Shown: positions 41,589 through 58,521 of the stretch, piece by piece
Numbering within the stretch: the first letter of the stretch is position 1
How the letters are laid out: each line of letters opens with the position of its first letter
NCBI GenBank assembly: GCA_031261985.1
Contig: JAISIR010000003.1
Coordinates: 26,924-90,923 of the forward strand
Origin: Clostridiales bacterium
GTDB taxonomy: Bacteria > Bacillota > Clostridia > Monoglobales > WRBX01
DNA length: 64,000 nt
Direction of reading: 5' to 3'
Notes under the pieces: generated by a model
Database searches by the model: none
What the model saw: only the letters and a program-made list of their open reading frames with translations
What the model was told of the DNA's origin: nothing
Made by a program: the position numbers and the translations under genes

Positions 41589-41662
<74 letters not shown>

Positions 41663-41665
41663 GTG

Positions 41666-41880
41666 TCGTCGCAACTGCTACGCTCAGCTATTTTTTGCCA
41701 AAAGCGCAAAAACGTCGCTTATGCTCCGAGTTGCTCCTCTTATCCCACAAAACGGAAATCGCGTTTTGCGGGAGCCCTATGCGCTTACGCGCATAGCAAC
41801 TGCTACGCTTAGCTTATTTTCACAAAAAGCGTGAAAATATCACCTTGCTCCGCGTTACCTCTCTTTATAATAATATGTAA
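41666..41880 (-). repeat. Two-unit modular hairpin repeat immediately 5' of tRNA-Cys (family U)
   Basis: On the minus strand, 41666-41784 matches 48528-48646 with about 9 differences in 119 nt by eye. Units consist of a GGGCTCCC hairpin, ATAAGAGGAGCAAC, a TTTTTGCG..GCAAAAA hairpin and AGCAGTTGC. Confidence 0.85.
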
Positions 41881-41978
41881 TAGAGAGGACTAAGATTCCT
41901 TTTAAAAAAATAGAACGGAACAAAACGCTCCACCCTAAATTATATATCGCTGCAAAAAAGTGGATATTTAGCAGCTTT

Positions 41979-42053
41979 TGGAGCGGAAGACGAGATTCGA
42001 ACTCGCGACTTTCACCTTGGCAAGGTGACACTCTACCACTGAGTCACTCCCGC
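41979..42053 (-). tRNA. tRNA-Gly (anticodon GCC)
   Basis: Reverse complement is GCGGGAGTGACTCAGTGGTAGAGTGTCACCTTGCCAAGGTGAAAGTCGCGAGTTCGAATCTCGTCTTCCGCTCCA. Confidence 0.9.
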
Positions 42054-42140
42054 ATGACCAATTGCATAAAACATTATAGCATAAAGATGATACTTTGTCA
42101 ACCCCTTTTAAAAAAATATTACCAAATTTAATTAAAAGTA

Positions 42141-42169
42141 TTGACATATTTAATATTTTGTAGTATAAT
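42141..42169 (+). promoter_or_regulatory. Sigma-A type promoter of tRNA(CAU)
   Basis: TTGACA, 17 nt, TATAAT. The spacer ...TTTTGTAG matches the tRNA-Lys promoter. Confidence 0.7.
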
Positions 42170-42184
42170 GGTTAAGGTCAATGT

Positions 42185-42261
42185 GCACCTTTAGCTCAGT
42201 TGGTTAGAGCAACCGGCTCATAACCGGTTTGTCCGGGGTTCAAGTCCCTGAAGGTGCACCA
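42185..42261 (+). tRNA. tRNA with CAU anticodon (Met, or Ile2 if lysidine-modified)
   Basis: GCACCTTTAGCTCAGTTGGTTAGAGCAACCGGCTCATAACCGGTTTGTCCGGGGTTCAAGTCCCTGAAGGTGCACCA. The Ile-like body leaves the identity ambiguous. Confidence 0.85.
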
Positions 42262-42421
42262 AAACTTTGCATGCAGCAAAGAGTTAAAAGATAAGAGAGA
42301 AAAGTTAAAAGTTAAGGAAGTTTTGCTAACGCAAACAATTAAAGGCAAAGTTTTGTACTTTTCATTTTTCTCTTTTAACTTTTCACGCTTCACTAAAAAG
42401 CTAACTTCACAAATACCTTTT
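42262..42421 (+). repeat. Structured tRNA trailer repeat, copy 2
   Basis: AAAACTTTGCATGCAGCAAAGAGTTAAAAGATAAGAGAGAAAAGT...GGCAAAGTTTTGTACTTTT, matching 6764-6908. Confidence 0.85.
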
Positions 42422-42446
42422 TCCTTGCTTATAGCAAGGATTTTTT
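42422..42446 (+). terminator. Intrinsic terminator of the tRNA(CAU) unit
   Basis: TCCTTGC / GCAAGGA followed by TTTTTT, the same stem as at 6909-6934. Confidence 0.7.
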
Positions 42447-42508
42447 ATGTTTATTACTAATCATTTATTATTCATAAATTTTTTAATTTATACATTAATT
42501 CCGCACTT

Positions 42509-42559
42509 TGTAACAATTCTGTAATATTTCTGTAACAATTTTGTAAAAAACTCTTGACA
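42509..42559 (+). promoter_or_regulatory. Four 11-bp-phased TGTAAY repeats abutting the cysS -35 box
   Basis: TGTAAC 42509, TGTAAT 42520, TGTAAC 42531, TGTAAA 42542, then TTGACA 42554-42559. Confidence 0.6.
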
Positions 42560-42812
42560 TTTTAACCTCTTTATGATATAGTATGCAATAATTAACTAGC
42601 GTTTAGCTATTTTTAGGATAAATTTTTCTTTTTGAAACAAACGAGTAAGGCAAGGCTGGCGCCTGCCGCAATGAGTTTGTGCGCAAAAAGGGGGATTTAA
42701 CTAAAAAGAGCAAATGATAGTTATTTATTGCATACTAAAGTATGCTAAATTCGATATTACAACCACTTCTATCCGCTTTAATTTTTAATATTTACAAGGG
42801 GGAGCAATGCAA

Positions 42813-44369
42813 ATGAAAATTTACAACACGTTAAAAAAGCAAAAAGAAGATTTCATCCCGCTAGAACCTGGTAAAGTTAAGATGTACGCTTGTGGTATTA
42901 CTGTGTATGACCAATGCCATATTGGCCACGCCCGACAAGCCATTGCTTACGATATGATTACAAAATATCTCCGATTTAAAGGTTTAGAAGTTAAATATGT
43001 ACGTAATTACACAGATGTTGATGATAAAATAATCGCCCGAGCAAACGACTTAGGCGTTAATGCACTAGATTATTCTGCCGATAGAATTATAGATGCAGAA
43101 GCCGATTTAAAAGCGCTAGATATTGCAGATGCCACCGTTAAACCTCAGGCATCGCAATACATACCACAAATTCAAAAATTCGTCGAAGGGTTAATCAACA
43201 AAGGTAATGCGTATGCCACCGATAATGGCGATGTATACTTTTCGGTAGATAGTTTCCCTCAATATGGCGAGCTATCTGGCATAAAATCGGACGAACTAAT
43301 AGAAGGAACGCGCAAAGATATAGAGCCAGGCAAAAGAAGCCCTAAAGACTTCGCACTTTGGAAGTCTGCCAAGCCAGGTGAGATTTCGTGGGAATCGCCT
43401 TGGGGAGAAGGCCGCCCAGGTTGGCATATAGAGTGTTCTGCCATGGCAATAGATAATTTAGGCGAAACCATTGATATCCATGGCGGCGGTCAAGATTTAG
43501 TCTTCCCGCATCACGAGAACGAAAAAGCTCAAAGCGAGGCATTAACTGGTAAGACATTTGTTAAAACCTGGACTCATAGCGGGCTTATTACCGTTGACGG
43601 TCAAAAAATGGGTAAATCGCTTGGTAACTCGGTTACAATTAAGCAAGCACTTAATGCCTACGATAAAGAAGTAATCCGCTACGCCATGCTTTCTAAGCAT
43701 TATTCGTCACCGGTAGATTATAACGACAAAGAGTTTTCTCTTGCCGAAAAGCATTTGTATTATTTTTATAATTCGTTAAAATCGGTTAAGGATTATCTTG
43801 CCAAAGCCGACGCAACTAATGCACCTACCACTAAAGAAATGATGGACATAAACAAAAAAGTCTCTCAAATCCGCGAGAATTTTATAAACGCAATGGACGA
43901 TGACTTTAATTCAGCATCGGCTTTATCACAACTATTTGCTACTTTTAAAAACGTTAATAGTGTTTTAAATTCAAAGGGAGTATCCGAAGAATATAAAGCC
44001 GAGTTCTTTAAACAATTTAACTCGACCGTTTTAGAGTTATACAAAGTGTTTGGTGTTTTGCAATATCAGCCCGAGCAATTTATCGACCAAACGCGCGAGA
44101 AATACATGAAGGGGTTAGACATAACCGTCCCCGAGATTCAGCAATCTATAGCTGAAAGAGCAACGGCAAAAGAGAATAAAGATTACGCAAAATCGGACGA
44201 AATTAGAAACAACCTAGATGCCCGAGGTATTATTTTAAAAGATACCCGAGCAGGTACCACTTGGGATATAAAAGAGCTTTATATAAGAGACTTAGCCGCG
44301 TTAGAAAAAAATGCCGAGCAAGCAAAAGAAGTAAAGCCTATTAGTGGTACAATTAAATTTAACAGATAA
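42813..44369 (+). CDS. cysS: Cysteinyl-tRNA synthetase
   Basis: 'CHIGHAR' (HIGH) and 'KMGKSLGN' (KMSKS). Start chosen at the second ATG (42813, 8 nt from GGGGGAG). The ATG at 42807 is also possible. Confidence 0.9.
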   Translation: MKIYNTLKKQKEDFIPLEPGKVKMYACGITVYDQCHIGHARQAIAYDMITKYLRFKGLEVKYVRNYTDVDDKIIARANDLGVNALDYSADRIIDAEADLKALDIADATVKPQASQYIPQIQKFVEGLINKGNAYATDNGDVYFSVDSFPQYGELSGIKSDELIEGTRKDIEPGKRSPKDFALWKSAKPGEISWESPWGEGRPGWHIECSAMAIDNLGETIDIHGGGQDLVFPHHENEKAQSEALTGKTFVKTWTHSGLITVDGQKMGKSLGNSVTIKQALNAYDKEVIRYAMLSKHYSSPVDYNDKEFSLAEKHLYYFYNSLKSVKDYLAKADATNAPTTKEMMDINKKVSQIRENFINAMDDDFNSASALSQLFATFKNVNSVLNSKGVSEEYKAEFFKQFNSTVLELYKVFGVLQYQPEQFIDQTREKYMKGLDITVPEIQQSIAERATAKENKDYAKSDEIRNNLDARGIILKDTRAGTTWDIKELYIRDLAALEKNAEQAKEVKPISGTIKFNR

Positions 44370-44382
44370 GGGGAATAATAAA

Positions 44383-46137
44383 ATGCCAAACAAATACAAC
44401 TTTGATGTTTACACCGATAGAACTGGCACCCACTCTGCGCAACACGACGACGCACCAGCCGACGGGTTACCTCTTTGGGTTGCCGATACCGACTTTCCTA
44501 CAGTTAAAGAAGCAAACGAAGCCATTATAAAAGCCGCCGAAAAAGGCATTTATGGCTACGAGCGATTAGGCGATGAGTATTATAAAGCTATCATTAATTG
44601 GTTCGATAGGCATCATGGTTTAAAAATAAAAAAAGATTGGGTAGTAAACACTCCAGGCGTAGTGACGGCCGTGGGCCTTGCAATTAACGCGTATACCGAA
44701 AAAGGCGAGAGCGTAATGATAAACCGCCCTGTTTATTATCCATTCTCTAATACAATTAATGCAAGCGACAGAAAGTTAATTAACAGCCCCATGGTATACA
44801 AAAATGGCGAGTACACATTAGACTTTGCCGATTTTGAAGAGAAGATTAAAAACAATAACGTAAAGCTTTATATACTCTGTTCACCTCATAATCCTATTAG
44901 TAAAGTATGGAAGAAAGACGAGCTTAAAAAGATAGGTGATATCTGCCATAAGTATGGAGTAAAAGTAATTTCCGACGAGATTCACGCAGACTTAGCATTG
45001 TTCGGTAATAAACACACACCGTTTGCCTCACTAGGCAAAAAATATGCAGATATCTCGATAACCTGCACATCGCCAAGTAAAACCTTTAACCTAGCAGGCT
45101 TGCAGATGTCTAATATAGTAATATCTAACCCTCAAATGCGCGAGAAATTTAAAAAAGCCTACACGGGCGCAGGTCTAATGTGGCCAACCTTCTTCTCTGC
45201 CTTTGCAATAGAGGCGGCATATAATAACGGCGACGAGTATTTGGCACAATTAAAAGAGTACATAGAAGGCAACTTTAAACTAGCCGAAGAGTTTTTTAAA
45301 GAAAAACTCCCTAAAGTTAAAATTGTTAAGCCAGAAGGTACATACTTAGGCTGGTTCGATTTCTCGGAATATGGCTTAACTGGCGACGAAATGGAGCACT
45401 TGCTACAGAATAAAGCTAAGCTGTTCCTAGACGGTGGCAACTGGTTTGGTCCCGAGGGCGACCAGTTCCAAAGGGTTAATATGGCATACCCGCGTTCTAC
45501 TATACAAACCGCACTCGAGAAGTTAGAGATGGCGTTAACACCTACAAACGATATAAATGCCAAGCTAGATTTTGGTGACGCGCTAGACTTAACCGATAAG
45601 GACGAAAAAATTGCACTTGCTCATTATAAATTACGAATTGCCGATAGCAATATCCCAGAAAGCGAAGCAAGGGCGATTGTATCCGACCTTTTAGTAGCAG
45701 GCGATTACAAGTTTGTATTAAATGTGTTATCTAACCCCAAAACATCGTCTAATTTAAAAGAAATTATAGTAGAAGAGACCGCCAAACACATCCCACAGGT
45801 TGAAGATTACTTTTTAAACTCTAAGTTAGTAAATGCGCAATTGTATAAAGAATATAAAGAGTTCTTAAAAGGTTTTAACGCCATCAACGGCACAGAATAC
45901 TCGATACCAAAAGAGATTCAATGGAAAAACATGCCGTCTAAGGCAGACGAGCAAATAATGTTGGGCGAATATGTATCTGACACTAAAGTAGGCACAAACA
46001 AAAGCTTAAAAAGAATTTTAGATGCGTTTGATGAAGGAACAAAAGATAGAACAAGATTACAAAAGGCAATTGATAGAAATCCACAAACAAATCTAGGGGC
46101 AACACATAAAAACACAGCAATGGGCCACAAAAGATAA
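44383..46137 (+). CDS. PLP-dependent C-S lyase (PatB/MalY-type aminotransferase) with a ~190-aa C-terminal extension
   Basis: Start at ATG 44383 after AAGGGGA. 'SPHNPISKVW', 'SDEIHADL' and 'SPSKTFNLAGL' (PLP lysine). Residues after about 395 are unrecognised. Confidence 0.75.
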   Translation: MPNKYNFDVYTDRTGTHSAQHDDAPADGLPLWVADTDFPTVKEANEAIIKAAEKGIYGYERLGDEYYKAIINWFDRHHGLKIKKDWVVNTPGVVTAVGLAINAYTEKGESVMINRPVYYPFSNTINASDRKLINSPMVYKNGEYTLDFADFEEKIKNNNVKLYILCSPHNPISKVWKKDELKKIGDICHKYGVKVISDEIHADLALFGNKHTPFASLGKKYADISITCTSPSKTFNLAGLQMSNIVISNPQMREKFKKAYTGAGLMWPTFFSAFAIEAAYNNGDEYLAQLKEYIEGNFKLAEEFFKEKLPKVKIVKPEGTYLGWFDFSEYGLTGDEMEHLLQNKAKLFLDGGNWFGPEGDQFQRVNMAYPRSTIQTALEKLEMALTPTNDINAKLDFGDALDLTDKDEKIALAHYKLRIADSNIPESEARAIVSDLLVAGDYKFVLNVLSNPKTSSNLKEIIVEETAKHIPQVEDYFLNSKLVNAQLYKEYKEFLKGFNAINGTEYSIPKEIQWKNMPSKADEQIMLGEYVSDTKVGTNKSLKRILDAFDEGTKDRTRLQKAIDRNPQTNLGATHKNTAMGHKR

Positions 46138-46166
46138 TCTTAGAAAAGAAAAACGGAGGTTATAAA

Positions 46167-47357
46167 ATGGTTTATTTAGATAACGCAGCCACAACACCTG
46201 TCCGCGATGAAGTACTAGAAGCAATGATGCCTTATTTTAAGGAAGAGTTTGGTAATGCTTCAACTTCGTATAAACTTGGGCATAACGCAAAAAACGCGTT
46301 AGAGAACTCTCGAACTAAAGTAGCCGAAGTATTAAACACAAACGCTAACGAAATCCTTTTTACTAGCGGCGGAACAGAGAGCGATAATTTTGCCATAAAA
46401 GGTTATGCTCGAGCACACGCAAATAAAGGCAAGCACATTATCACTTCAAATATTGAACATCACGCTGTCTCTCATAGCCTTAAATCTTTGCAAAAAGAGG
46501 GCTTTGAAGTTACCGAGGTGCCCGTTAATAGCGAGGGCATTGTCGAAATCGCAGAGTTTGAAAAAGCAATCAGGCCCGACACTATTTTAGCAACAATTAT
46601 GCAGGCGAATAATGAGATAGGTACCATTCAACCTATAAAAGAGCTAGCCGAAATCGCGCATAAAAACGGATTTGCTTTTCATACCGATGCAGTTCAATCC
46701 ATCGCTCATATACCAGTTGATATAAACGATTTAGGTGTCGACATGCTATCCCTTTCTGGTCATAAATTTGGTGCCATGAAAGGCATCGGCGCAATATATG
46801 TTAAAAAAGGAATCAAACTAGACATCTTTAACGATGGCGGCGGTCAAGAAAAAGGCAGACGCGCAGGCACCGAGAATATCGCTGGTATTGTAGGCTTAGC
46901 AAAAGCTTTAGAGCTAGCACAGCAAGAATTACCAGAAGAAATGCCAAGGCTATCAAAATTGCGCGACACGCTAATGGACGGGCTATTAGAGAGAATTCCT
47001 GGCAGCAGGGTAAACGGCTCTAGAACTCAGCGCGTGCCTGGCAATGTTAACATGAGCTTCCCGTATGTAGAGGGCGAAAGCATGCTAATTCATCTAGATT
47101 TAATAAACACTTGCGCCGCTTCTGGCTCGGCTTGCACAAGCGGTTCACTCGACCCATCACATGTGCTATTAGCAATAGGGTTAGACCATGCCACCGCTCA
47201 CGGTTCAATAAGGTTCTCAATAGGCAAAGACAACACCGAGGAAGACATTAAATTTGTGCTAGACAATATGCCTAAAATTGTTGAAAAATTACAAGCCATG
47301 AGCCCGTTAAAACCACAAGGTAATACAAAAATGCCAATGTATAGTAGAGCAATGTAA
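46167..47357 (+). CDS. iscS: Cysteine desulfurase (NifS/IscS type)
   Basis: 'YLDNAATTP', 'SLSGHKFGAMKGIGAIYV' and the active-site loop 'AASGSACTSG'. Confidence 0.9.
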   Translation: MVYLDNAATTPVRDEVLEAMMPYFKEEFGNASTSYKLGHNAKNALENSRTKVAEVLNTNANEILFTSGGTESDNFAIKGYARAHANKGKHIITSNIEHHAVSHSLKSLQKEGFEVTEVPVNSEGIVEIAEFEKAIRPDTILATIMQANNEIGTIQPIKELAEIAHKNGFAFHTDAVQSIAHIPVDINDLGVDMLSLSGHKFGAMKGIGAIYVKKGIKLDIFNDGGGQEKGRRAGTENIAGIVGLAKALELAQQELPEEMPRLSKLRDTLMDGLLERIPGSRVNGSRTQRVPGNVNMSFPYVEGESMLIHLDLINTCAASGSACTSGSLDPSHVLLAIGLDHATAHGSIRFSIGKDNTEEDIKFVLDNMPKIVEKLQAMSPLKPQGNTKMPMYSRAM

Positions 47358-47385
47358 TCATTGCTTACATTGTATATGATATAAA

Positions 47386-47464
47386 CAAATTGCCAGCTTG
47401 TCGGCAATTTGCACAAAAGGGCTTTAGAAGCGCAGACGCGATTTACTCGCGTCGAAGCGTATTT
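47386..47464 (+). repeat. Family H1 two-hairpin repeat
   Basis: CAAATTGCCAGCTTGTCGGCAATTTG followed by GCTTTAGAAG plus a GACGCGA/TCGCGTC hairpin. Confidence 0.85.
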
Positions 47465-47492
47465 ATAAAAATTAATTAGGGGGAAACCAAAA

Positions 47493-48311
47493 ATGAAAAA
47501 GTTTCACGTAGAAGACGGAATTTTGTGTTATGTTAATCCAAAAACAGCAGGCGAGTTTGTAATACCCGAGGGCGTTACAGAAATTGCCGACCAAGCGTTT
47601 TACGACTGCTCACAATTAACAGGCGTTAAAATTCCCGACACAGTTACCACAATAGGCGCTCTTGCGTTTGAAGGCTGCTCGTCACTAAAAGAGGTAATTT
47701 TACCCGATAGCGTTACGTCTTTGGGCGAAGGCGCGTTTGCAAATTGCGAAAATTTAGAAAGCATCGACCTATCTAGCAATATCAAAAATTTAGAAGATGT
47801 TACATTCTCTAATTGCAAAAAGTTAAAACATGTTAGTGGTTTAGACTCGGTAGAAACAATCGGTTCAAAAGCCTTTTACTTTGCAGGGCTAGAAGCAATT
47901 TCGCTTCCTAAAGGTTTAACAACGCTTGCCGACAACGCGTTTTATGGCACAAAAATTAAAAAAGTTACATTTAATGGTAGTGTCGAAAACATCGTTTCAC
48001 AAGCGTTTGTTGGTGCAAACGATATTTCGGAACTAGAGTTTAACTTTAATGGCAAAAATGCTGGCGTCATTAATTTACAACAAAACAAAAGCCGCCTGCC
48101 TATGTTGCGCAAACCTTTAATGCTAACAGTTGTTCCCGATGCTCAAACCAAGGGCTACAACGTGTACCTAGGTAACGATGATACTAACCTAGCAGACGAA
48201 GTTTATAAAGTAAGCCAAAACTACATCCAAAAGTTCGAGAAAACATCAACAGGCTTCGATTATAAAACACGTCAAGAAGTGCCTGTTTATACACCATCAT
48301 TAATAAAATAG
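47493..48311 (+). CDS. BspA-type leucine-rich repeat protein (no signal peptide seen)
   Basis: Repeats 'IPEGVTEIADQAFYDCSQL', 'IPDTVTTIGALAFEGCSSL', 'LPDSVTSLGEGAFANCENL'. Confidence 0.7.
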   Translation: MKKFHVEDGILCYVNPKTAGEFVIPEGVTEIADQAFYDCSQLTGVKIPDTVTTIGALAFEGCSSLKEVILPDSVTSLGEGAFANCENLESIDLSSNIKNLEDVTFSNCKKLKHVSGLDSVETIGSKAFYFAGLEAISLPKGLTTLADNAFYGTKIKKVTFNGSVENIVSQAFVGANDISELEFNFNGKNAGVINLQQNKSRLPMLRKPLMLTVVPDAQTKGYNVYLGNDDTNLADEVYKVSQNYIQKFEKTSTGFDYKTRQEVPVYTPSLIK

Positions 48312-48331
48312 CATAAATTTTTAAAAAAGTA

Positions 48332-48360
48332 TTGACAAATTCGCATTTTTAGAATATAAT
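48332..48360 (+). promoter_or_regulatory. Sigma-A type promoter upstream of the cys leader/cysE-cysK
   Basis: TTGACA (48332-48337), 17 nt, TATAAT (48355-48360). Confidence 0.65.
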
Positions 48361-48375
48361 ACTATATAGTAAAAA

Positions 48376-48650
48376 ACAAATTGCCAGCTTGTCGGTAATT
48401 TGCACAAAAGGGCTCCCACAAAACGCGGGTTCCATTTTGTGGGATAAGAGGAGCAACGCGGAACAAAAGCGACGTTTTTGCGAATTTTGCAAAAACTAGC
48501 CGCGTGAAGCAGTTGCATTGCGCGAAAGCGCAAAGGGCTCCCGCAAAAGCCGATTTTGCTTTTGTGGGATAAGAGGAGCAACGCGGAGCATAAGCGACGT
48601 TTTTGCGCTTTTGGCAAAAACTAGCGGAGCGTAGCAGTTGCGACGAAAGG
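48376..48650 (+). repeat. H1 hairpin plus a two-unit family U modular repeat in the cysE leader
   Basis: 48528-48646 closely matches the sequence 5' of tRNA-Cys (41666-41784, minus strand). ORF-track minus-strand ORFs here are artefacts. Confidence 0.85.
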
Positions 48651-48659
48651 AAGGTAATT

Positions 48660-48743
48660 ATGCAAACTAACAAAGCAAATTTAGTATGTTGTTGCTGCGC
48701 TTGCTGTATTAAGCAAGTTAGTTTGTGTTGCATATTTATCTAA
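48660..48743 (+). CDS. Cys-codon-rich leader peptide (27 aa, 8 Cys), not in the ORF track
   Basis: ATG at 48660, 5 nt after AAAGGAAGG. Encodes MQTNKANLVCCCCACCIKQVSLCCIFI. Lies 104 nt upstream of cysE, with a terminator and alternative pairings. Confidence 0.65.
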   Translation: MQTNKANLVCCCCACCIKQVSLCCIFI

Positions 48744-48770
48744 AAAACATTGTAAAAGTAATTAGATAGA

Positions 48771-48805
48771 TACCGTGAGCAAACTAACTTGCCCACGGTG
48801 TTTTT
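48771..48805 (+). terminator. Attenuator terminator between the leader ORF and cysE
   Basis: Stem (T)ACCGTG-A-GC / GC-C-CACGGT(G), loop AAACTAACTT, then TTTTT. Confidence 0.7.
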
Positions 48806-48846
48806 ATGTAAAAAGCAAATATGTTAATAATTTAGAGGAGAATATT

Positions 48847-49506
48847 ATGTTTATCAATATGAAAAGCGAAATCGAAGCAGCAATAAAAAACGACCCCGCG
48901 GCAACATCTAGTTTTCAAGTAAAAATGCTTTATCCTAGTGTTAAAGTATTAAAAATGCACAAGATAGCCCATTATTTGTACAAGCACAAACACTTCTTTT
49001 TAGCAAGGCTTATATCGCAGATGGCAAGGCATAAAACAGGGATAGAAATCCACCCAGGCGCAACCATCGGCAAAGGTTTATTTATAGACCACGGAATGGG
49101 CGTTGTTATAGGCGAAACAGCCGAGATTGGTGATAATTGCCTAATGTATCATGGCGTAACCCTAGGCGGCGTGGGGCTAGAAGCAACCAAAAGGCACCCA
49201 ACAATAGGCAACAACGTAATGATAGGCGCAGGCGCAAAAGTTCTAGGGAACATTACAATCGGCGATAACGTAAAAATCGGCGCAAATAGTGTTGTTCTAA
49301 AAGACGTGCCCGCTAACTCGACAGTTGTAGGCATACCCGGCAGAATAATTAACAAAAGTAATAATACAATTAATAATAAAAATAATAAAGGAGAGCAAAT
49401 TAATGAAGGTTTACAAGAACTTAACCGAATTAGTAGGAAATACCCCGTTGGTAGAACTAGCTCGATATTCAAAGGAAGAGGGGCTGCAATCCAACTTAAT
49501 AGCTAA
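48847..49506 (+). CDS. cysE: Serine O-acetyltransferase
   Basis: Start at ATG 48847 after GGAGG; the ORF-track start lies in the terminator. '[33 protein letters not shown]' hexapeptide repeats. The Asn-rich tail overlaps cysK. Confidence 0.85.
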
Positions 49507-50314
49507 GGTAGAGTATTTTAATCCACTATCTAGCGTTAAAGACCGCGTAGGGCTTGCAATGATACAAGATGCAGAAGAGAAAGGCTTGCTAAAGCCAGGC
49601 GCAACCATAATAGAGCCAACCAGCGGAAACACAGGTGTAGGTCTTGCCTTTGTATCAGCTATTAAAGGATACAAACTAATACTAACCATGCCCGAATCGA
49701 TGAGCGATGAGCGCAAAAAATTACTAGCTAATTTAGGTGCCGAGCTTATTTTAACCCCTGCCAAAGAAGGCATGAGCGGCTCAATAGCTAAAGCAGAAGA
49801 ACTTAATAAACAAATAGAAGGCTCAATAATTTTAGGTCAGTTTGTAAACCCTGCCAACCCTGCCATTCATAAAAAAACCACCGCGGTAGAGATATGGAAC
49901 GACACCGACGGTAAAGTTGATTATATAGTAGCAGGCGTGGGCACAGGCGGAACGCTAACAGGTGTGGGCGAATATTTTAAAGAGAAAAACCCTAACGTTA
50001 AAATCATTGCCGTCGAGCCAGCCGAATCGGCAGTTTTATCTGGCAAGCCAAAAGGCACGCATGGGATTCAAGGCATAGGCGCAGGCTTTGTGCCAGAGAT
50101 TTTGGATACTAAAGTAATCGACGAAATTATGCCGATAGAAACCGAAGCCGCGTATGCGACTCTTCGTAAATTAGCCAAAACAGAGGGATTATTCGTCGGA
50201 ATCTCTGCATCTGCCGCTATTACAGCCGCTTCTATTATTGCAAAAACTCAAAAGGATAAAAACATTGTAGTAATTTTGCCCGACACTGGCGAAAGATATT
50301 TATCACTTTTGTAA
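49403..50314 (+). CDS. cysK: Cysteine synthase A (O-acetylserine sulfhydrylase)
   Basis: 'NPLSSVKDR' (PLP lysine), 'PTSGNTG' and '[10 protein letters not shown]'. AAAGGAG RBS. Confidence 0.9.
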
Positions 50315-50344
50315 TAAAATGTAGTTACAGTGTAGTTGCAATGT

Positions 50345-50375
50345 AAAAAACCACCTTGATTTGGTGGTTTTTTTA
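50345..50375 (+). terminator. Intrinsic terminator after cysK
   Basis: AAAAAACCACC / GGTGGTTTTTT. Confidence 0.8.
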
Positions 50376-50421
50376 ACGTTTAGTGACAAAAATATTACCA
50401 AAATGTAGAAAAATTTAAAAA

Positions 50422-50567
50422 TGTAACCAAAATGTTAAGTTATTGTAAAGAAAATGTAACAAAAGGCGAGTTGCCAAAATACCTAGGTTTACCCTTGCAA
50501 AAAGCCCTGTAATTTCTAATAATTTAACATTCTCTTAACACTAATTTAACACAAATTTAACTTGCAA
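50422..50567 (+). promoter_or_regulatory. Two blocks of 11-bp-phased (T/G)TAAC repeats ending at a promoter
   Basis: TGTAAC 50422, TGTTAA 50433, TGTAAA 50444, TGTAAC 50455. Then TTAAC at 50524, 50535, 50546 and 50557, then TTGCAA (50562), 17 nt, TATAAT. Confidence 0.6.
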
Positions 50568-50710
50568 TTTTCGACATTTGATTGTATAATAGAACTATAG
50601 CATTAGTATTATGCGTTCATTTTGCATACCTATATTAATGTAAGTAAAAAAACAAGCAAAAAACACAGACAACAACTCAAATAATAGATTTTTCTTAGGG
50701 GGAAATTTTT

Positions 50711-51499
50711 ATGTCAGATGAAAAGACAGAACTTACGTTCCAAGATAGCGGCGCAATTCAGATGGCTACAAGCCAAGCAATTATGACGGCAAACGCTGCA
50801 CGGATGAGCAAAAACGCAAATAAAAAAGACGAGAATTTACGTCGTCTGCCAAAAGCTTTAGCCGATCAGCCCGAGTCAGTTAAAAACCTTTACCGCGAGC
50901 TTACTAAAAAAGATAAAAAAACTTTTGCCGACCTTGTTAAAGGCGAACATATCCCACTAACTAAAGAGGGAATGACACATGTTTTAGAAAAATTTGTTGC
51001 TACTAAATCACCCGCTCAGCTTGGTAATAACTCTACAGATGAAGAAAGACTTAAAAACGATATGCTTTACCAAATGCTAGAGAGTTTAGCGCGCGCAGTT
51101 GGCGTTCCAGAAGAAGACTTACAAAAGATTCGTCGCGGCGAGGACCCTCACCCCGAAGAGCTTAAAGACACCGAGCAACAACTAAGCGCAAATAAAGAGC
51201 AAGATAAAATTGAAGTTAAGCACGCAGAAGCTAAAATTCGTGATGATTATAACAATAGCGATATATTAAAAGAAATTAGCCAGGACGATACCTTAAAGAA
51301 GCATACTAAACGTATAGAAGATGCTATGGATAAAGCTCCTGAAAAAGTAGGCAAAGAGATTAACGCTCTAGAGCGCACTTTCGATAACAGAAAATATTCT
51401 AACGAGAAGCGCAACGATATCCGTGAAGCGTTAATGCAAAAAAGCCCTAAAGTACGCGAGGCTTATGCACTACATCCGCCTGCTGGGCTATCAAAATAA
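50711..51499 (+). CDS. Hypothetical charged protein, first gene of the conjugation-module transcription unit
   Basis: GGGGGA RBS. Lys/Glu-rich with no motif recognised. Confidence 0.5.
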   Translation: MSDEKTELTFQDSGAIQMATSQAIMTANAARMSKNANKKDENLRRLPKALADQPESVKNLYRELTKKDKKTFADLVKGEHIPLTKEGMTHVLEKFVATKSPAQLGNNSTDEERLKNDMLYQMLESLARAVGVPEEDLQKIRRGEDPHPEELKDTEQQLSANKEQDKIEVKHAEAKIRDDYNNSDILKEISQDDTLKKHTKRIEDAMDKAPEKVGKEINALERTFDNRKYSNEKRNDIREALMQKSPKVREAYALHPPAGLSK

Positions 51500-51532
51500 T
51501 TTAACAATAAAAAACAAGGAGTGAGATAAATC

Positions 51533-53524
51533 ATGGCTGGAGAAGGAACCGAACTAAAACAAACCTTTGGGCAAAAACTAAGCAGCACCTTTTTGAACCC
51601 ATTTATGTTCAACTATTACTTTGCAATTATTAAGGCAATCAAACGTGCTATCCAAATTGGCGATGTTGGGCCTTTAAAAGACGAGCTTAAAACTTTAGGC
51701 GAGGTAATAGATAAAAATATAGAGGCACAAGGTAATTACTTAAACAAGCTAGGTAAAGCGCGCGATGGCGTGGCAAACGATTTAAAGAAAAAGAACGTCG
51801 AGCTTGTTGATGTTAATAACGACCTTGCAGATATTGCCGATAAAAATTCGCCCGCGTATAAAGAGGCAGCAGCTAAGCGTAATGCTATACAAAAAGAGAT
51901 TAACGGGCTTAACGAAGATATGTCTAACCTAGACGGCATGATAAAGAAAAATAGTGACTTTGCCAACCAATTGCAATCTCAAAGTGCCGAGATTAAAAAG
52001 TATACGCAAATGAGTAAAGAGCAATTTAAAGGCGTCGTAAGTAGCATGGACGCTAAACGTTGTAAAGAAGTATTTTACGATAATATGTTTAAACCGTTTG
52101 AGACTACAATGAATAACATGAGCATGGGCTATGGTGCCGATAAAGATATTTTGGCATCTGCTCATAGCCAGGCAGTCCAAGGCTTTATCCCCGAGTTGCA
52201 CGATGCAATGTCTAACGCTGTTGCTATTCAGTCGGTAGGTTCAAACTTTGCTCTAGAGCGCAAGCTAACTAAAGAAGAGTGGGAGACTTTAGCGCCAGCC
52301 TTTAAGCAATTAGATGTAGCTTCAGGAAAAGCTAAAAACGCTATCCACGATAAAGCTCCAGAGCTAACTAAACAGGTTCATGAAGAGGCATTAAACGCTG
52401 TGTTTGAAAAAGCTAAGGGTAACGCCGAGTTAGTTGCCGAATTAACCGACCCTAAAAAATTCACGCAACACATGACAGATTATATGGTAGACAAAGGCTA
52501 TATGAACCTAGAGCGTCAAAAGGAAATATTAGCAGACCCAAGATTAGCACAAGTTCAAGCCAACGATATAAACGTATTAAACAACCGTGGCAGTGGTCCA
52601 GATGGTCCTAGTGTCCCAACTCCTGGCGATCTTGGGGAGCCTGCACAGGAGCCAAATATCCAAAGCCCAGGGCAAGGCACTCCGCAGGGTAATGGTCAAC
52701 CAATAAACGCTACACGACCTCAGCCTGTGCAGCTTACTTCTGAGCAAATACAAGAGTTTACTAAAGCCAACGGGTTTTTACAAAAAAATGGGATTACAGA
52801 TGAACAGATTGGCGCTGCACTTCAAGAATCATTAGCCGAAGGAAAGATTCTCCCTACCGATAGAGCGAATGATATAGCTAAAAAAATTACCGATAAATTA
52901 TACGATAACCGCGAGATTAATAACGAGCAAAAGGCGATCCTAGAAAAAACTAGGTATGAGCAATTATCCGAGGCGGCTGTAGATACAAATTTGACCGTCG
53001 GGCAAATGGAAAAAACTCTCGACCCGCACGAAAATGCGTTCGACGGTGCTAACTTAAGCGAAGCATCGCGCACGGTAGAAGCAGCCAAGGTTCGCGGCGA
53101 TCGCGTGGTAGATAAAGCTAATAAGTTTCAGATGGACCTAGATAAAACTCTAGAGCTTGAAGGCGTTTCTCAAAGAGAGCGTAACAAAATAGCTAAAAGG
53201 TATGGTAAGCAACAATATAACCAATACAAGGTAGAGTTTAAAATTATCGAAGGTACAGGCATGTTAGATTATAAAGAACCAATGCTTGTGTCACCTATTG
53301 GCGTTCCAATACTCGACCCAAGGGTTAGCAAGCACTTAAAGCAGATTGATAAACACAGAGCCATAGGCGATAAGATATATCAGCATTTTAGAGAACATGT
53401 TAAAGGTGAACTCGCTGGATTTACCGATAAAAAAGTAAATGAAGTATTAGGTTCCGAGCCAGCCAAACAACTTGCGCAGTCCAGGGCACCAAAAGGTGGA
53501 CTTCCTGCACCTTTGCCTGTGTAA
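51533..53524 (+). CDS. Large coiled-coil protein, unknown function
   Basis: AAGGAG RBS. Long heptad-like charged regions and a Pro/Gln-rich linker. Confidence 0.5.
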   Translation: MAGEGTELKQTFGQKLSSTFLNPFMFNYYFAIIKAIKRAIQIGDVGPLKDELKTLGEVIDKNIEAQGNYLNKLGKARDGVANDLKKKNVELVDVNNDLADIADKNSPAYKEAAAKRNAIQKEINGLNEDMSNLDGMIKKNSDFANQLQSQSAEIKKYTQMSKEQFKGVVSSMDAKRCKEVFYDNMFKPFETTMNNMSMGYGADKDILASAHSQAVQGFIPELHDAMSNAVAIQSVGSNFALERKLTKEEWETLAPAFKQLDVASGKAKNAIHDKAPELTKQVHEEALNAVFEKAKGNAELVAELTDPKKFTQHMTDYMVDKGYMNLERQKEILADPRLAQVQANDINVLNNRGSGPDGPSVPTPGDLGEPAQEPNIQSPGQGTPQGNGQPINATRPQPVQLTSEQIQEFTKANGFLQKNGITDEQIGAALQESLAEGKILPTDRANDIAKKITDKLYDNREINNEQKAILEKTRYEQLSEAAVDTNLTVGQMEKTLDPHENAFDGANLSEASRTVEAAKVRGDRVVDKANKFQMDLDKTLELEGVSQRERNKIAKRYGKQQYNQYKVEFKIIEGTGMLDYKEPMLVSPIGVPILDPRVSKHLKQIDKHRAIGDKIYQHFREHVKGELAGFTDKKVNEVLGSEPAKQLAQSRAPKGGLPAPLPV

Positions 53525-53602
53525 ATATTAAAAAAAGTTAAAAATTTTTTGGGGGAGCAAATCAATAAAGAATCATAAACAAAAAAATTCGAGGTGCTCT
53601 AT

Positions 53603-55324
53603 ATGCCAAAATTAAAACCAAATGACATCTTAATAAATGCAATAGCCCTAGTACTAACTGTTCTGTTGGGCATGCGCATAGGCACCGCTTTAACCGAGTT
53701 TCCGGGTAAAGATTTAATCGTAACCGCACTAAACGATGCCTTAGCCCGCCCGCAACATATAGTGCTTGGCTTACCGCAAACCTTCCAGTTTGGAGCATAC
53801 GCCTTCTTCATCTACGCAGTTACATTTTTGTATATCCAAACTAATAAAAAGAACCTTATGCAAGGTAAAGAACATGGTACAGCCGAGTGGGGCAACCATA
53901 AAGACATCGCATCTATTATAGATTCTGACGATGACAAAAACATATTGTTTACCGAGTCAGAAAAAATGAGCCTAGACACTCATAAAACTCGTAAGAACCT
54001 AAACGTTATGGTTATCGGTGGTTCAGGTAGTGGTAAAACTCGCTTCTTTGTTAAACCTAATATAATGCAGCGTAACACTAGCTATATTATAACCGACCCA
54101 AAAGGCGAGCTGTTATCATCTACCAGCGGATTATTAGCCGAGGCAGGCTACAAAATAAGGGTGTTTAACCTAATAGATATGGCACATAGCAATTGCTATA
54201 ATCCATTTGCCTATCTAAAAGAAGATAAAGACGTAATGCGCCTTATCCGCACACTTATTAAAAATACTACCCCGCCTAACGCACAAGCTAACGACCCATT
54301 TTGGGAGAAATCCGAGACCGCGTTGCTAATGGCGCTTGTGTATTACTTGTTTTACGAGGCTCCACCAGAAGAACAAAACTTTAGCATGATAATGGAGTTA
54401 TTACGTGCCGCCGAAGTCCGCGAGACCGATGAGAACTTTGAAAGTGATTTAGATAGACTGTTTAATATGCTAGAAGAGAAAGACCCTAACCACGTTGCCC
54501 TAAAGCAATACAAGGTGTTTAAACAGGCAGCTGGTCAAACGGCAAAATCTATCTTGGTAAGTGCAAGCGTGCGTTTAGCACCATTTAATATCCGCGATAT
54601 TGGCGCACTAACCATCGACGATAATATCGATCTAGATAAAATTGGCGACGAAAAAACTGTTTTATATGCCGTTATCCCCGATAGTCACGATACTTACAAC
54701 TTTATAGTAGCCATGATGTATAGCCAAGTTTTCGAGTCACTATTCTATAAGGCAGACTTTGAATATGGCGGTAGGCTGCCAGTGCATGTGCGCTTCCTAC
54801 TAGACGAGTTTGCTAACATAGGTCAAATCCCCGATTTCGAGAAGATGGTTGCTACTATCCGAAGCCGCGAGATTTCTACTAGCATAATCATCCAGAACTT
54901 AGCTCAGCTTAAAACAATGTATAAAGATAGTTGGGAGAGTATAACCGGTAACTGCGATAGCACACTTTTCTTGGGCGGTCAAGAGCAATCTACGCTAGAG
55001 TACATATCTAAAGCCCTTGGCAAAAAAACTATCGATACCAAAACCACTAGCAAAAATAAAGGTAAAAGCGGTGGTACAACCGTTAACTTTAACATCCATG
55101 GGCGCGAACTTATGATGCCTGACGAAATAGGACGCATGCCCGACAACACTTGCATTTTGATGATGCGTGGCATGAGGCCGTTTAAATCTCATAAAATAGT
55201 GTTAGAGAAGCATAAAATGTATGGTAAATTATTCGATGGCAAAGGCGCACAAAGTTACGACTATCGCGACCACTTCGCTACACCTTACGATAAACTCGAC
55301 CACTTCTTTAATGAGTTTAAGTAA
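53603..55324 (+). CDS. Type IV coupling protein (VirD4/TraG family)
   Basis: Two N-terminal TM helices, Walker A 'VIGGSGSGKT', Walker B 'RFLLDEFANIG'. Start at ATG 53603 after GAGGTG. Confidence 0.85.
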   Translation: MPKLKPNDILINAIALVLTVLLGMRIGTALTEFPGKDLIVTALNDALARPQHIVLGLPQTFQFGAYAFFIYAVTFLYIQTNKKNLMQGKEHGTAEWGNHKDIASIIDSDDDKNILFTESEKMSLDTHKTRKNLNVMVIGGSGSGKTRFFVKPNIMQRNTSYIITDPKGELLSSTSGLLAEAGYKIRVFNLIDMAHSNCYNPFAYLKEDKDVMRLIRTLIKNTTPPNAQANDPFWEKSETALLMALVYYLFYEAPPEEQNFSMIMELLRAAEVRETDENFESDLDRLFNMLEEKDPNHVALKQYKVFKQAAGQTAKSILVSASVRLAPFNIRDIGALTIDDNIDLDKIGDEKTVLYAVIPDSHDTYNFIVAMMYSQVFESLFYKADFEYGGRLPVHVRFLLDEFANIGQIPDFEKMVATIRSREISTSIIIQNLAQLKTMYKDSWESITGNCDSTLFLGGQEQSTLEYISKALGKKTIDTKTTSKNKGKSGGTTVNFNIHGRELMMPDEIGRMPDNTCILMMRGMRPFKSHKIVLEKHKMYGKLFDGKGAQSYDYRDHFATPYDKLDHFFNEFK

Positions 55325-55364
55325 GGGCAAGCAATAAGCCAGAAGCCAGAAATATTGTAAAATT

Positions 55365-55400
55365 CCCGTCATTGCGGGCTACGACCCGCAATCTACACGC
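55365..55400 (+). repeat. Terminal hairpin motif, left of the GIY-YIG gene
   Basis: CCCGTCATTGCGGGCTACGACCCGCAATCTACACGC. The inverted partner is at 55833-55865. Confidence 0.8.
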
Positions 55401-55434
55401 AAATAAGGAATAGCAAAATAAAGAAGGGTAATAG

Positions 55435-55749
55435 ATGGATAAAAAATATTACGTCTACTTTATGAGTAATTACGATAATTCTGTTTTATATATAGGCGTA
55501 ACAAACAATTTAGTCCGTCGAGTATCTGAACATATAGAGAAACAAAAGTTAAAAGGCAAAAAGAAACCATTCACTTTTAAATATAATTGCAATCGTTTAG
55601 TTTATTATGAAGATTTTAATAGCATAAATCAAGCCATAGAGCGCGAGAAACAATTAAAAAATTGGAAGCGTGAGTGGAAAAACGAATTAGTAGAGAGGCG
55701 TAATCCAAATTGGTCAGATTTAAGTAGAATGATAGGCGCAAAGATGTAA
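55435..55749 (+). CDS. Small GIY-YIG nuclease (UPF0213/COG2827 type)
   Basis: 'YYVYFMSNYDNSVLYIGVTNNLVRRVSEH' carries the GIY...YIG...R motifs, with a downstream 'EREKQLKNW' glutamate. 104 aa. Confidence 0.8.
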   Translation: MDKKYYVYFMSNYDNSVLYIGVTNNLVRRVSEHIEKQKLKGKKKPFTFKYNCNRLVYYEDFNSINQAIEREKQLKNWKREWKNELVERRNPNWSDLSRMIGAKM

Positions 55750-55764
55750 AACAAGGTAGAGAGT

Positions 55765-55865
55765 TCCGTCATCCTGAACTTGATTCAGGATCTACACGCA
55801 ATGTTGTAATCGACTACTATCATTCAAAACAAGCATATAGATTGCGGGTCAAGCCCGCAATGACG
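55765..55865. repeat. ~100-bp double-hairpin palindromic unit right of the GIY-YIG gene
   Basis: TCCGTCATCCTGAACTTGATTCAGGATCTACACGC, 33 nt, GCATATAGATTGCGGGTCAAGCCCGCAATGACG. Confidence 0.8.
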
Positions 55866-56003
55866 TAACCAGATTTCTGCATTCTGCATTAGAACGAAGT
55901 TCTGCGTTCTGCATTATATACATTGTCCGCAACGACACTAAACTAACCCAACATGTAAAAATTTACAATATATATTCATCAAATCAAAAAGGAGATGTTT
56001 ACC

Positions 56004-56318
56004 ATGTTAAAATTCATCAAAGAGAAATTCACAAGGCTTGCAGTTTCTACAGGTGTTATGCTTAGCATGCCAATGACAGCGTTTGCAGTTACTATGCCAG
56101 CGATTGGCAGCGCAAACATGGATTCAGCCGATAGCGTGCTTTCATTGCTTTACAAAGGCATTCAGTACATTGGCGTAATATTTGTAGTATTCGGTGCTGT
56201 TCAAGCCGGCTTAGGTTTTAAAAACGACGATGCTGAGGGCAAAGCTAAAGGTATGCGTTCAGTTATCGCTGGTGCTATTGTTTGGGGTATTGGTGCACTT
56301 GTATCAGGAGTATCCTAA
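56004..56318 (+). CDS. Maff2-like small membrane protein, paralogue 1
   Basis: Signal/TM region then 'GAVQAGLGFKNDDAEGKAKGMRSVIAGAIV'. Start at ATG 56004. Confidence 0.5.
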   Translation: MLKFIKEKFTRLAVSTGVMLSMPMTAFAVTMPAIGSANMDSADSVLSLLYKGIQYIGVIFVVFGAVQAGLGFKNDDAEGKAKGMRSVIAGAIVWGIGALVSGVS

Positions 56319-56366
56319 ATAACATTTTAGTTAGCAGCAATAAAAGGAATTAAGGGGGAAGCAATC

Positions 56367-56939
56367 ATGCTTAACTTACATAAAAAAACTAAATTTTTCT
56401 GTGCAGGGTTATCAGCGCTGATTCTTCCCTTGCTTTTGCTGCCGCAACAAGTGCTTGCAGCCATTAATTTAGACCCTTCACAAGTAACCTCGGCAATGGA
56501 TGGCATTGGCGGCGGCGCGTATGGCAAAATAGGTAGCTACTTTTTAGGCGGCATATTTTGCATAGGCGTTGTATTGGTTACATTCGGTGCAGTTAAGTCT
56601 GGCATGGGTTTTAAAGATGAAGACTCTGCCGCAAAAATTCAAGGTATGCAATCAGTTATTGCGGGTGCATTATTAGCAGCTATTTCGTTAGTAACAGGCG
56701 TTTTTGGCTCGGCTACACGCCGAATTGCCGAAATCGAAGGCGTAGGCGAGACTATATCTCTACTATCGCAAGGAATTACATATTTAGGCGTAGCAACGCT
56801 TGTCTTTGGCGCAGTCCAAGCAGGCGCGGGCTTTAAAAACGACGATGCCGATGGTAAAGTAAAAGGTATGCGCACAGTTATTGCAGGTGCAATCGTCTTT
56901 GCCGTTGGTCAAGCAGCAGCTGCTGCAAGCGGTACTTAA
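56367..56939 (+). CDS. Maff2-like protein, paralogue 2 (two domains in tandem)
   Basis: 'GAVKSGMGFKDEDSAAKIQGMQSVIAGALL' and 'GAVQAGAGFKNDDADGKVKGMRTVIAGAIV'. Confidence 0.5.
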   Translation: MLNLHKKTKFFCAGLSALILPLLLLPQQVLAAINLDPSQVTSAMDGIGGGAYGKIGSYFLGGIFCIGVVLVTFGAVKSGMGFKDEDSAAKIQGMQSVIAGALLAAISLVTGVFGSATRRIAEIEGVGETISLLSQGITYLGVATLVFGAVQAGAGFKNDDADGKVKGMRTVIAGAIVFAVGQAAAAASGT

Positions 56940-56983
56940 TTGATTACTTTAAAAAAGCAAAATATCCCAAAGGGGTGTTTAAA

Positions 56984-57286: not shown

Positions 57287-57346
57287 TTATTTGACATATA
57301 TCTGTCATTTAACACGCAAGATTTATCACGAAAGCAGGTGATTGCA

Positions 57347-57883: not shown

Positions 57884-57936
57884 AGACTTTACCAAACCAA
57901 ACATATACCACTAACCAAAAAAAGGGGTTGTTTCCC

Positions 57937-58476: not shown

Positions 58477-58521
58477 AGGGAAATGATAAATGATAAATGA
58501 TAAATGATATTTCCTGGGCAC

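Follow-up and report, generated by a model that had tools for sequence, protein, structure and literature searches.

How are the cysteine biosynthesis genes cysE and cysK switched on and off in a Clostridiales genome where a putative leader-peptide attenuator would sit at the place that a cysteine T-box holds in related Clostridia? The question is raised by a stretch of 64,000 nucleotides (nt) of contig JAISIR010000003.1, from a metagenome-assembled genome (MAG); the whole stretch is called the window hereafter, and coordinates refer to it unless another locus is named (Table 1). The element upstream of cysE probably attenuates transcription by the classical, ribosome-mediated leader-peptide mechanism; it would sense Cys-tRNA and control cysE-cysK. 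This reading, put forward in the original prediction as trp/his-type attenuation keyed to cysteine, was supported by the anatomy of the region, by folding with the ribosome masked, by stem changes and low synonymous divergence in a close relative, by the leader of a more distant relative, and by the lack of an internal promoter. As far as sequence can tell, the predicted element displayed every trait of classical leader-peptide attenuation.

The leader open reading frame (ORF) was present as originally described, with 8 Cys among its 27 codons and 6 of these packed into 7 codons (48687-48707). Cys accounted for 0.95% of the residues in the long ORFs of the window. The probability of at least 8 Cys in 27 codons was 1.3e-10 when calculated from the long-ORF Cys frequency and 2.6e-7 when calculated from base composition, for a total of 888 short ATG ORFs in the window, and a chance origin of the Cys-rich ORF was excluded. 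That the ORF had escaped annotation was borne out by the protein accessions of the MAG record. These include MDR0930328 (CysS), MDR0930330 (NifS), MDR0930332.1 (CysE) and MDR0930333.1 (CysK), and since the sole free number (...331) would fall to the leucine-rich repeat (LRR) gene located upstream, none appears to be left for the leader.

The sigma-70-type promoter at 48332-48360 was the sole promoter-like site on the plus strand from the LRR gene to cysE, and none was detected on that strand in 48361-49317. Because no promoter-like site separates the leader from cysE, cysE would be expressible by read-through alone. The terminator was found 28 nt past the leader stop codon, and its U tract ended 41 nt ahead of the cysE start. 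The Shine-Dalgarno site of cysE (GAGGAG, around 48835), 30 nt past the terminator, was unpaired in the folds.

The intrinsic terminator was located at 48771-48805, where the original prediction had placed it, but its stem was two A-U pairs longer than had been written: ACCGUG-A-GCAA pairs with UUGC-C-CACGGU around the loop ACUAAC (48783-48788), followed by G-U5 at 48800-05. The antiterminator pairing also held as claimed, segments 2 and 3 (48713-48725 and 48780-48792) forming a 13-nt inverted repeat with 100% complementarity, the sole perfect one of that length in 47300-48900. The duplex of segments 2 and 3 alone reached -17.0 kcal/mol, and the extended antiterminator structure -28.6 kcal/mol, compared to -20.2 kcal/mol when the same RNA was in the terminator state.

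Three alternative partners were available to segment 2, namely the Cys-run codons (48699-705), the 5' end of the ORF, and segment 3 within the terminator (13 bp). In the local hairpin at 48699-48718, the Cys-run codons GCU-UGC-UGU supply the 5' arm, and the 3' arm coincides with the beginning of segment 2. The U-rich stretch UAGUUUGUGU follows directly 3' of this hairpin, which was scored as terminator-like; by analogy with the 1:2 hairpin of the trp leader, it may be a candidate pause hairpin that synchronises ribosome and polymerase. The pairing of codons 2-4 with 48717-48725 had been proposed as the anti-antiterminator, and its nine base pairs were indeed all found. Its role as the 1:2 element was not retained, as it lies 5' of the stalled ribosome, unmasked, and is mismatched in the close relative described below. 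The conserved and classically placed 1:2 element is instead the local hairpin (arms 48699-48705 and 48712-48718). A longer helix of 48650-48672 with 48716-48745 (duplex of -18.5 kcal/mol) takes in both the Shine-Dalgarno site and the AUG of the leader, therefore the untranslated RNA would hide its own ribosome-binding site. The free leader RNA folded as three elements (the helix between the 5' and 3' parts of the ORF, the local hairpin and the terminator), and the folding of the 156-nt leader had a z-score of -2.96.

The switch was examined by folding only the RNA from the 3' edge of the ribosome to the U tract, while the A-site was moved codon by codon. With the footprint edge set at +15, the predicted probability of the antiterminator was 0.95-1.00 when the A-site was on Cys codons 1 to 5 (48687-48702) and about 0.5 on the sixth Cys, while any later A-site codon, including the stop, yielded a terminator probability of 0.97-0.98. 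The terminator probability was at most 0.11 only with the A-site on the Cys run or, under some footprints, on the codon that precedes it. The antiterminating positions remained on the Cys run with footprint edges of +12, +15 and +18, and none of 300 dinucleotide shuffles of 48660-48770 reproduced the behaviour. In the close relative, they comprised the last two codons before the Cys run and its first four Cys codons. The claim that a stall on the Cys run frees segment 2 thus stood in the fold from ribosome to U tract; it failed when the whole RNA was folded with only the footprint masked. This latter model gave no antitermination, which was traced to the 5' helix closing round the ribosome, and it was replaced by the ribosome-to-polymerase fold. 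Because footprint-only masking leaves the terminator in place, the predicted switch holds only under the usual assumption that no pairing spans a stalled ribosome.

The mechanism suggested by these folds would start with the local hairpin, the first to form, at which RNA polymerase may pause and wait for the ribosome. With ample Cys-tRNA(Cys), the ribosome would pass segment 2 and reach the stop codon, the 3:4 terminator would fold, and transcription would end at 48801-05. With scarce Cys-tRNA(Cys), the ribosome would stall with a Cys codon in its A-site, covering the 5' arm of the local hairpin and also separating the 5' partner from segment 2, which would stay free. Free segment 2 could then pair with segment 3 once the latter is made, the terminator would not form, and polymerase would enter cysE-cysK. 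Without translation, segment 2 would be doubly sequestered and termination would be the default.

Conservation in relatives, proposed as a check of the original prediction, turned out positive in locus L170 (JGI 3300042599), which belongs to the same 90% cysE cluster as the window and was located by an exact-protein look-up. The ORF, Cys run, terminator, antiterminator and local hairpin were all kept there. L170 was syntenic with the window (nifS, LRR gene, promoter, leader, terminator, cysE), and the two cysE genes were 91% identical in protein (104/114) and 79% in DNA. The orthologous leader of L170 was MQTNKANQVCCCCTCCIKQVGLRCIFI, with all six Cys codons of the run identical to those of the window. 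The -35 and -10 hexamers and their TTTTTAGAATATAAT context were kept as well, with the -10 box about 25 nt from a Shine-Dalgarno site (GAGGAGAGG) spaced as in the window. Since an in-frame TGA lies 15 nt upstream, the leader ATG of L170 is the only possible start. The U tract was separated from the cysE Shine-Dalgarno site by only about 24 nt.

Among codons with a conserved residue, synonymous differences between the window and L170 were found at 2 of 23 in the leader and at 52 of 104 in cysE (Fisher p = 3e-4), while 4 of the 27 residues of the leader peptide were changed. Such a combination of few synonymous differences with several residue changes points to a constraint on the RNA rather than on the peptide, the opposite of the pattern expected for a functional peptide. 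Over the window and L170 together, 97.4% of cells in the terminator and local hairpin were paired. Relative to the window, the L170 terminator displayed one compensatory change (G-C to A-U), an A-U pair in place of the A x C mismatch, and three further changes on one side only, all compatible with pairing. The local hairpin was kept, its closing G.U being replaced by A-U in a one-sided, pairing-compatible change, and the antiterminator was 100% paired with two wobble-compatible changes. The unpaired spacer at 48744-48770 was far more diverged. Altogether, the stem changes were supportive of the predicted structures. The register pairing 48663-71 with 48717-25 was broken in L170 by a central A x G mismatch, and an alternative upstream partner, GCAAAUCAA (codons 6-8), paired there with UUGGUUUGC.

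An independent second Cys-run leader was found in a more distant locus, L083 (Logan SRR25904989; 29% GC), whose cysE was 73% identical to that of the window. L083 harbored its own TTGACA-17-TATAAT promoter directly upstream of the leader, the -10 box being about 20 nt from the ATG, and a Shine-Dalgarno site (AAGGAGAAA, as AAGGAGAAATT-ATG) at a window-like spacing. Its leader peptide, MQLSQICCCCYFYFNQI, was unrelated to that of the window, having only MQ and the CCCC Cys run in common with it. A hairpin followed by a U tract (main terminator, 2131-2162) separated leader and cysE. Energies in this AU-rich leader were -12.5 kcal/mol for 1:2, -7.8 for 2:3 and -8.8 for the terminator; a clear 1:2 / 2:3 / 3:4 scheme was not retained for L083, its pairings being too weak and AU-rich to decide. 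At the end of the L083 leader (L083:2076-2101), an AU-only hairpin of 8 bp (AAUCAAAU / AUUUGAUU) carried the stop codon in its loop and was followed by U7. Its 3' arm could also pair with AAGUCAAAU, just 5' of the Cys run, and it may be a second, weak attenuation point.

The distribution of the leader was surveyed in a set of 169 loci around cysE homologues, in which the window's own sequence is L081. Only in L081 and L083 did a T run follow a short ORF that had a Shine-Dalgarno site, an ATG start and no fewer than three Cys in a row. Genome and metagenome contigs were also scanned with cysE, and none of the relatives with 51-69% identity among the matches listed displayed a Cys-run ORF upstream of cysE. 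Neither a leader nor a T-box was found in L082 (P0001) and L084 (P0004). In P0002/L165, cysE was inside an unrelated operon, while in P0005 and P0006 (L166-L169) cysK-cysE followed a T-box. T-boxes held the cysE position in 8 of 20 tested Clostridia loci, with scores for these and L166 of 97-123 bits. A protein search with the L083 cysE (P0003) returned nothing closer than 77%. The Cys leader is thus patchy in a poorly sampled clade. The contig bearing L084 also encoded the first 375 positions of a 16S rRNA gene (L084:5114-5573).

Known regulators of cysteine genes were searched at the same position. No T-box (RF00230) was found in the 64-kb window at the gathering threshold or in 47300-49000 at E ≤10, nor was one found in L170 or L083. 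The cis-regulators of Rfam 15, including the S-box/SAM (S-adenosylmethionine) riboswitch, yielded only sub-threshold chance matches, of which the best scored 24.9 bits (gathering score, 60). The CymR box, with the 27-bp consensus TAAWNCN2ANTWNAN3ATMGGAATTW, had no occurrence in the window with up to 3 mismatches, a weak test as this consensus is of the Bacillus/Staphylococcus type and may not hold in Clostridia.

Several observations weigh against the attenuator reading. Covariation was drawn from two sequences only, the window and L170, a number at which shuffle controls are uninformative. The instances found amount to three, two of them closely related, and the two nearest other cysE genes, L082 (78%) and L084 (75%), have no leader. 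The candidate antiterminator of L083 is weak (-7.8 compared to -8.8 kcal/mol for the terminator), with the second, AU-only hairpin in competition. Two extra Cys codons at 48726-48731, 3' of segment 2, are past the switch point and at odds with the model; they are probably outside the sensor, and L170 has Arg in place of one of them. In the window copy, structured repeats of about 285 nt separate promoter and leader, and for the full 444-nt RNA the minimum-free-energy fold has the terminator while the centroid has the antiterminator. In the whole-RNA fold with the footprint alone masked, the 5' partner (48663-71) closes around the ribosome and the terminator wins. In addition, the RNA polymerase of Bacillus subtilis is described as outrunning the ribosome (Johnson et al. 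2020, as reviewed in PMC7858274), and such runaway transcription counts against control by a leader peptide unless the polymerase pauses.

Other explanations of the same sequence were considered. The leader ORF could respond to translation stress in general (for example ribosome-targeting antibiotics or amino-acid starvation at large), in the manner of the vmlR, erm or cat leaders of Firmicutes, instead of sensing cysteine. Ribosome-dependent attenuation with polymerase pausing does serve antibiotic sensing in B. subtilis (PMC9226507), and in the folding model any stall at codons 9-15 leads to the same RNA outcome. However, the stall-sensitive stretch consists of six Cys codons in the window and L170, and of four in L083 despite an otherwise unrelated peptide, the regulated genes encode two enzymes dedicated to cysteine synthesis, and the peptide has no known arrest motif and matches no family, all of which makes this explanation unlikely. 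A switch made of RNA only, or mediated by a factor (small riboswitch, tRNA-binding element or target of an RNA-binding protein), would leave the ORF incidental. The nucleotide conservation above coding need would fit such a switch, as would the usual recourse of Firmicutes to T-boxes, riboswitches and RNA-binding proteins for this purpose (PMC1262725; PMC2965389). Yet the element had no Rfam match to E ≤10, is too short and without T-box features, and has no CymR-box-like site, whereas Shine-Dalgarno site, ATG, frame and Cys run are all kept in L170; the Cys run moreover recurs in L083 amid different RNA, which is hard to explain without translation. A switch in which translation plays no part thus appears very improbable.

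It is highly improbable that the product of the ORF is a functional micropeptide rich in Cys (for metal or redox binding, membrane, toxin, or precursor of a ribosomally synthesised and post-translationally modified peptide, RiPP), with the hairpin ending the small transcript of the ORF and cysE expressed separately, even though the Shine-Dalgarno site is good and two relatives keep the ORF intact. Clostridia commonly encode Cys-rich RiPP precursors such as SCIFF, and a RiPP/SCIFF precursor was dropped as a candidate after Pfam and NCBIfam scans of the leader peptides gave no match. Likewise, among 5.8 billion predicted-protein clusters none shared even three 5-mers with the 46-aa TTG-extended form of the ORF. 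The excess of residue changes over synonymous ones relative to cysE argues for selection on the RNA, and the L083 peptide has no more than MQ and CCCC in common with that of the window. No maturase or transporter gene adjoins the ORF, and the interval from terminator to cysE has neither a promoter nor space for one. The element could also be a decaying relic, if the 285-nt repeat insertion had uncoupled the promoter or altered the folding and left cysE-cysK constitutively off or leaky. The insertion is indeed absent from L170 and the equilibrium fold of the 444-nt RNA is ambiguous, but decay accords poorly with an intact ORF, Cys run, terminator and set of three pairings behind a promoter that still matches 12/12 consensus positions. 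Besides, the repeats contain no terminator-like site on the plus strand and fold strongly on themselves, so that local co-transcriptional structures would be expected, and a relic is accordingly rated very unlikely.

The traits shared with the enterobacterial attenuators (trp, his, leu, thr, ilvGMEDA/ilvBN, pheA) include a Shine-Dalgarno-led ORF with tandem codons for the amino acid of the pathway, an intrinsic terminator just 5' of the first biosynthetic gene, a mutually exclusive 2:3 antiterminator, a 1:2 hairpin that overlaps the regulatory codons and is a possible pause signal, and termination as the default without translation. The putative attenuator of cysE-cysK differs from them by its amino acid, its Clostridiales host, the absence of sequence similarity and an independent origin. 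It also has an extra long-range helix between the Shine-Dalgarno site, AUG and codons 2-4 and the 3' end of the ORF, and its stop codon is 16 nt past segment 2, therefore a ribosome at the stop would leave segment 2 unmasked.

The novelty claimed in the original prediction, for which no characterised Cys-leader-peptide attenuator was known, was overstated, as precedents exist in mycobacteria (10.1101/834739), Actinobacteria (PMC1262725) and Rhodobacterales (PMC8632094). The only experimentally characterised Cys leader system is that of the mycobacterial polycysteine leaderless small ORFs, or 'Cys ribulon' (Canestrari et al. 2020, bioRxiv 10.1101/834739 / Mol Microbiol 114:93), in which Cys runs of a tiny upstream ORF sense Cys-tRNA by stalling and de-repress cysteine-metabolism genes, as proposed here. 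Those ORFs lack a Shine-Dalgarno site and exert their effect on translation (10.1101/834739; same description in PMC13236596). Being leaderless, they have their AUG at the transcription start and occur in Actinobacteria, whereas the element described here has a Shine-Dalgarno site, a 5' untranslated region (UTR) and a strong Rho-independent terminator. The distance from the -10 box to the ATG was about 25 nt in L170, 20 nt in L083 and 300 nt in the window, and none of the three leaders is thus leaderless. As judged from its features, the element belongs neither to the mycobacterial leaderless poly-Cys class nor to the T-boxes.

Cys leader ORFs had been predicted in Actinobacteria in 2005, without terminators (PMC1262725), and the uORFC-8-2 motif upstream of cysS in Rhodobacterales was predicted with an intrinsic terminator (PMC8632094). 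The latter, too, is predicted to attenuate transcription through the ribosome, with tandem Cys codons lying within a stem and a U tract at the end of the motif; it differs by having two Cys codons only, by regulating cysS instead of biosynthesis and by an unrelated sequence in alpha-proteobacteria, and it too is a prediction only. No new principle is therefore at work, Cys-run leaders being characterised in mycobacteria and predicted in alpha-proteobacteria.

Cys T-boxes are found upstream of cysE, cysK or ubiG-mccBA in Clostridia and Bacilli (RF00230; PMC2566862, PMC2940859). They share with the putative leader attenuator the genomic position, the signal (tRNA-Cys charging) and the output (terminator versus antiterminator). 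A T-box is a structured RNA of about 220 nt that binds uncharged tRNA without translation, whereas the predicted sensor here would be a ribosome translating an RNA of about 150 nt. Amino-acid leader peptides are rare in Firmicutes. 'Regular' His leader peptides were predicted upstream of hisZ and of a hisS paralogue in bacilli, where they replace T-boxes (Naville & Gautheret 2010, PMC2965389), a sensor switch such as the one proposed here; these differ by amino acid, genes and order (Bacillales) and are predictions only. Full-text literature searches yielded no description of a Cys leader in Firmicutes.

On balance, these comparisons lean towards a scenario in which a terminator-based Cys attenuator evolved independently and took the place of the ancestral Cys T-box in a Clostridiales lineage that is small and barely sampled. 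Among leader-peptide transcription attenuators it would be the first for genes of cysteine biosynthesis, with ribosome and polymerase synchronised in a Firmicute, probably through the hairpin at 48699-48718, although runaway transcription is expected to work against such control in this phylum. If so, amino-acid-specific leader-peptide attenuation would reach cysteine biosynthesis genes and the Clostridia, whose repertoire has so far been regarded as T-boxes, S-boxes and CymR. The locus would be a clean natural case of sensor replacement, with signal and output the same and the T-box RNA replaced by a translating ribosome. Because the ribosome must influence a polymerase about 100 nt ahead, it would also offer a compact test of transcription-translation coupling and pausing in Firmicutes outside B. 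subtilis. In this MAG, the key regulatory element of cysE-cysK is predicted to be an unannotated ORF of 27 codons, which annotation pipelines miss.

Table 1. Coordinates of the predicted regulatory element and of neighbouring features in the window.
Feature	Position	Strand	Details
Sigma-70-type promoter	48332-48360	+	TTGACA-17 nt-TATAAT; 12/12 consensus positions
Dispersed repeats in 5' UTR	48374-48641	+	D2 48374-48414; D1a 48407-48516; D1b 48532-48641
Shine-Dalgarno site of leader ORF	48646-48654	+	AAAGGAAGG; 5-nt spacer to ATG
Leader ORF	48660-48743	+	27 codons, MQTNKANLVCCCCACCIKQVSLCCIFI; ATG 48660, stop TAA 48741-48743
Distal partner of segment 2	48663-48671	+	CAAACUAAC, codons 2-4; 9/9 complementary to 48717-48725
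Putative regulatory Cys run	48687-48707	+	CCCC-A-CC (TGT TGT TGC TGC GCT TGC TGT)
Local 1:2 hairpin	48699-48718	+	GCUUGCU / AGCAAGU, 7 bp, -9.3 kcal/mol; arms 48699-48705 / 48712-48718
Segment 2, predicted antiterminator 5' arm	48713-48725	+	GCAAGUUAGUUUG
Intrinsic terminator	48771-48805	+	Hairpin 48771-48800, -17.3 kcal/mol; U tract 48801-48805
Segment 3, predicted antiterminator 3' arm	48780-48792	+	CAAACUAACUUGC; spans terminator inner 5' arm, loop and inner 3' arm
cysE, serine O-acetyltransferase	48847-49506	+	MDR0930332.1; predicted first regulated gene
cysK, cysteine synthase A	49403-50314	+	MDR0930333.1; predicted second regulated gene; start overlaps cysE tail
tRNA-Cys(GCA)	41589-41662	-	
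cysS	42807-44369		
Class I/II aminotransferase	44344-46137		C-terminal extension of ~200 aa
nifS-type cysteine desulfurase	46167-47357		
BspA-type LRR protein gene	47493-48311		Breaks into the cysteine gene cluster

Cysteine-related genes were clustered at 41589-50314, encompassing tRNA-Cys, cysS, the aminotransferase, nifS and the leader-cysE-cysK unit. The annotated cysE (219 aa) overlapped the cysK start by 104 nt; as the cysE of relatives is 173-204 aa long, that of the window appears to be extended at its C-terminus, reading into cysK.

The repeat block of about 285 nt, in the interval from promoter to Shine-Dalgarno site, was missing from the syntenic L170, and judging from this comparison it is not part of the ancestral attenuator. 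D1 (about 110 nt, in tandem pairs at the leader) and D2 (about 40 nt, with a palindrome) formed a structured, genome-specific family of intergenic repeats. Other copies were located at 41666-41865 on the minus strand, 1535-1645, 13254-13311, 4984-5022 and 47383-47423, and a tandem D1 pair occupied the minus-strand interval from tRNA-Gly to tRNA-Cys. These repeats had no Rfam match, were absent from L170 and from all other fetched loci, and look like elements of the MITE (miniature inverted-repeat transposable element) or REP (repetitive extragenic palindromic) type. The occurrence of D1 upstream of both tRNA-Cys and the leader had made a tandem riboswitch a candidate, which was rejected given the varied contexts of the repeats in the window and their absence from the orthologous leader of L170.

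The cysS gene had a promoter of its own (11/12, with an extended -10) at 42554-42582 and a 5' UTR of about 220 nt, in which neither a T-box nor a Cys-run ORF was found. The first 147 nt of this UTR (42585-42731) formed one long imperfect hairpin (-66.9 kcal/mol, z = -5.7), which may represent either a further palindromic insertion or a cysS regulator not yet recognised.

A megablast comparison of 42000-60000 with plasmids gave a tRNA as the sole match. Directly 3' of cysK, the region 50711-55324 held two large ORFs (262 and 663 aa) without Pfam match, and a coupling protein of type IV secretion, of the TraG/VirD4 family, was encoded downstream of cysK at 53594-55324; together they suggest a conjugative element bordering the cys cluster. 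Elsewhere in the window, the ORF at 8994-9623 encoded collagen-like Gly-X-Y repeats after a Cys-rich stretch and resembled the BclA-type exosporium proteins of spore-forming Firmicutes.

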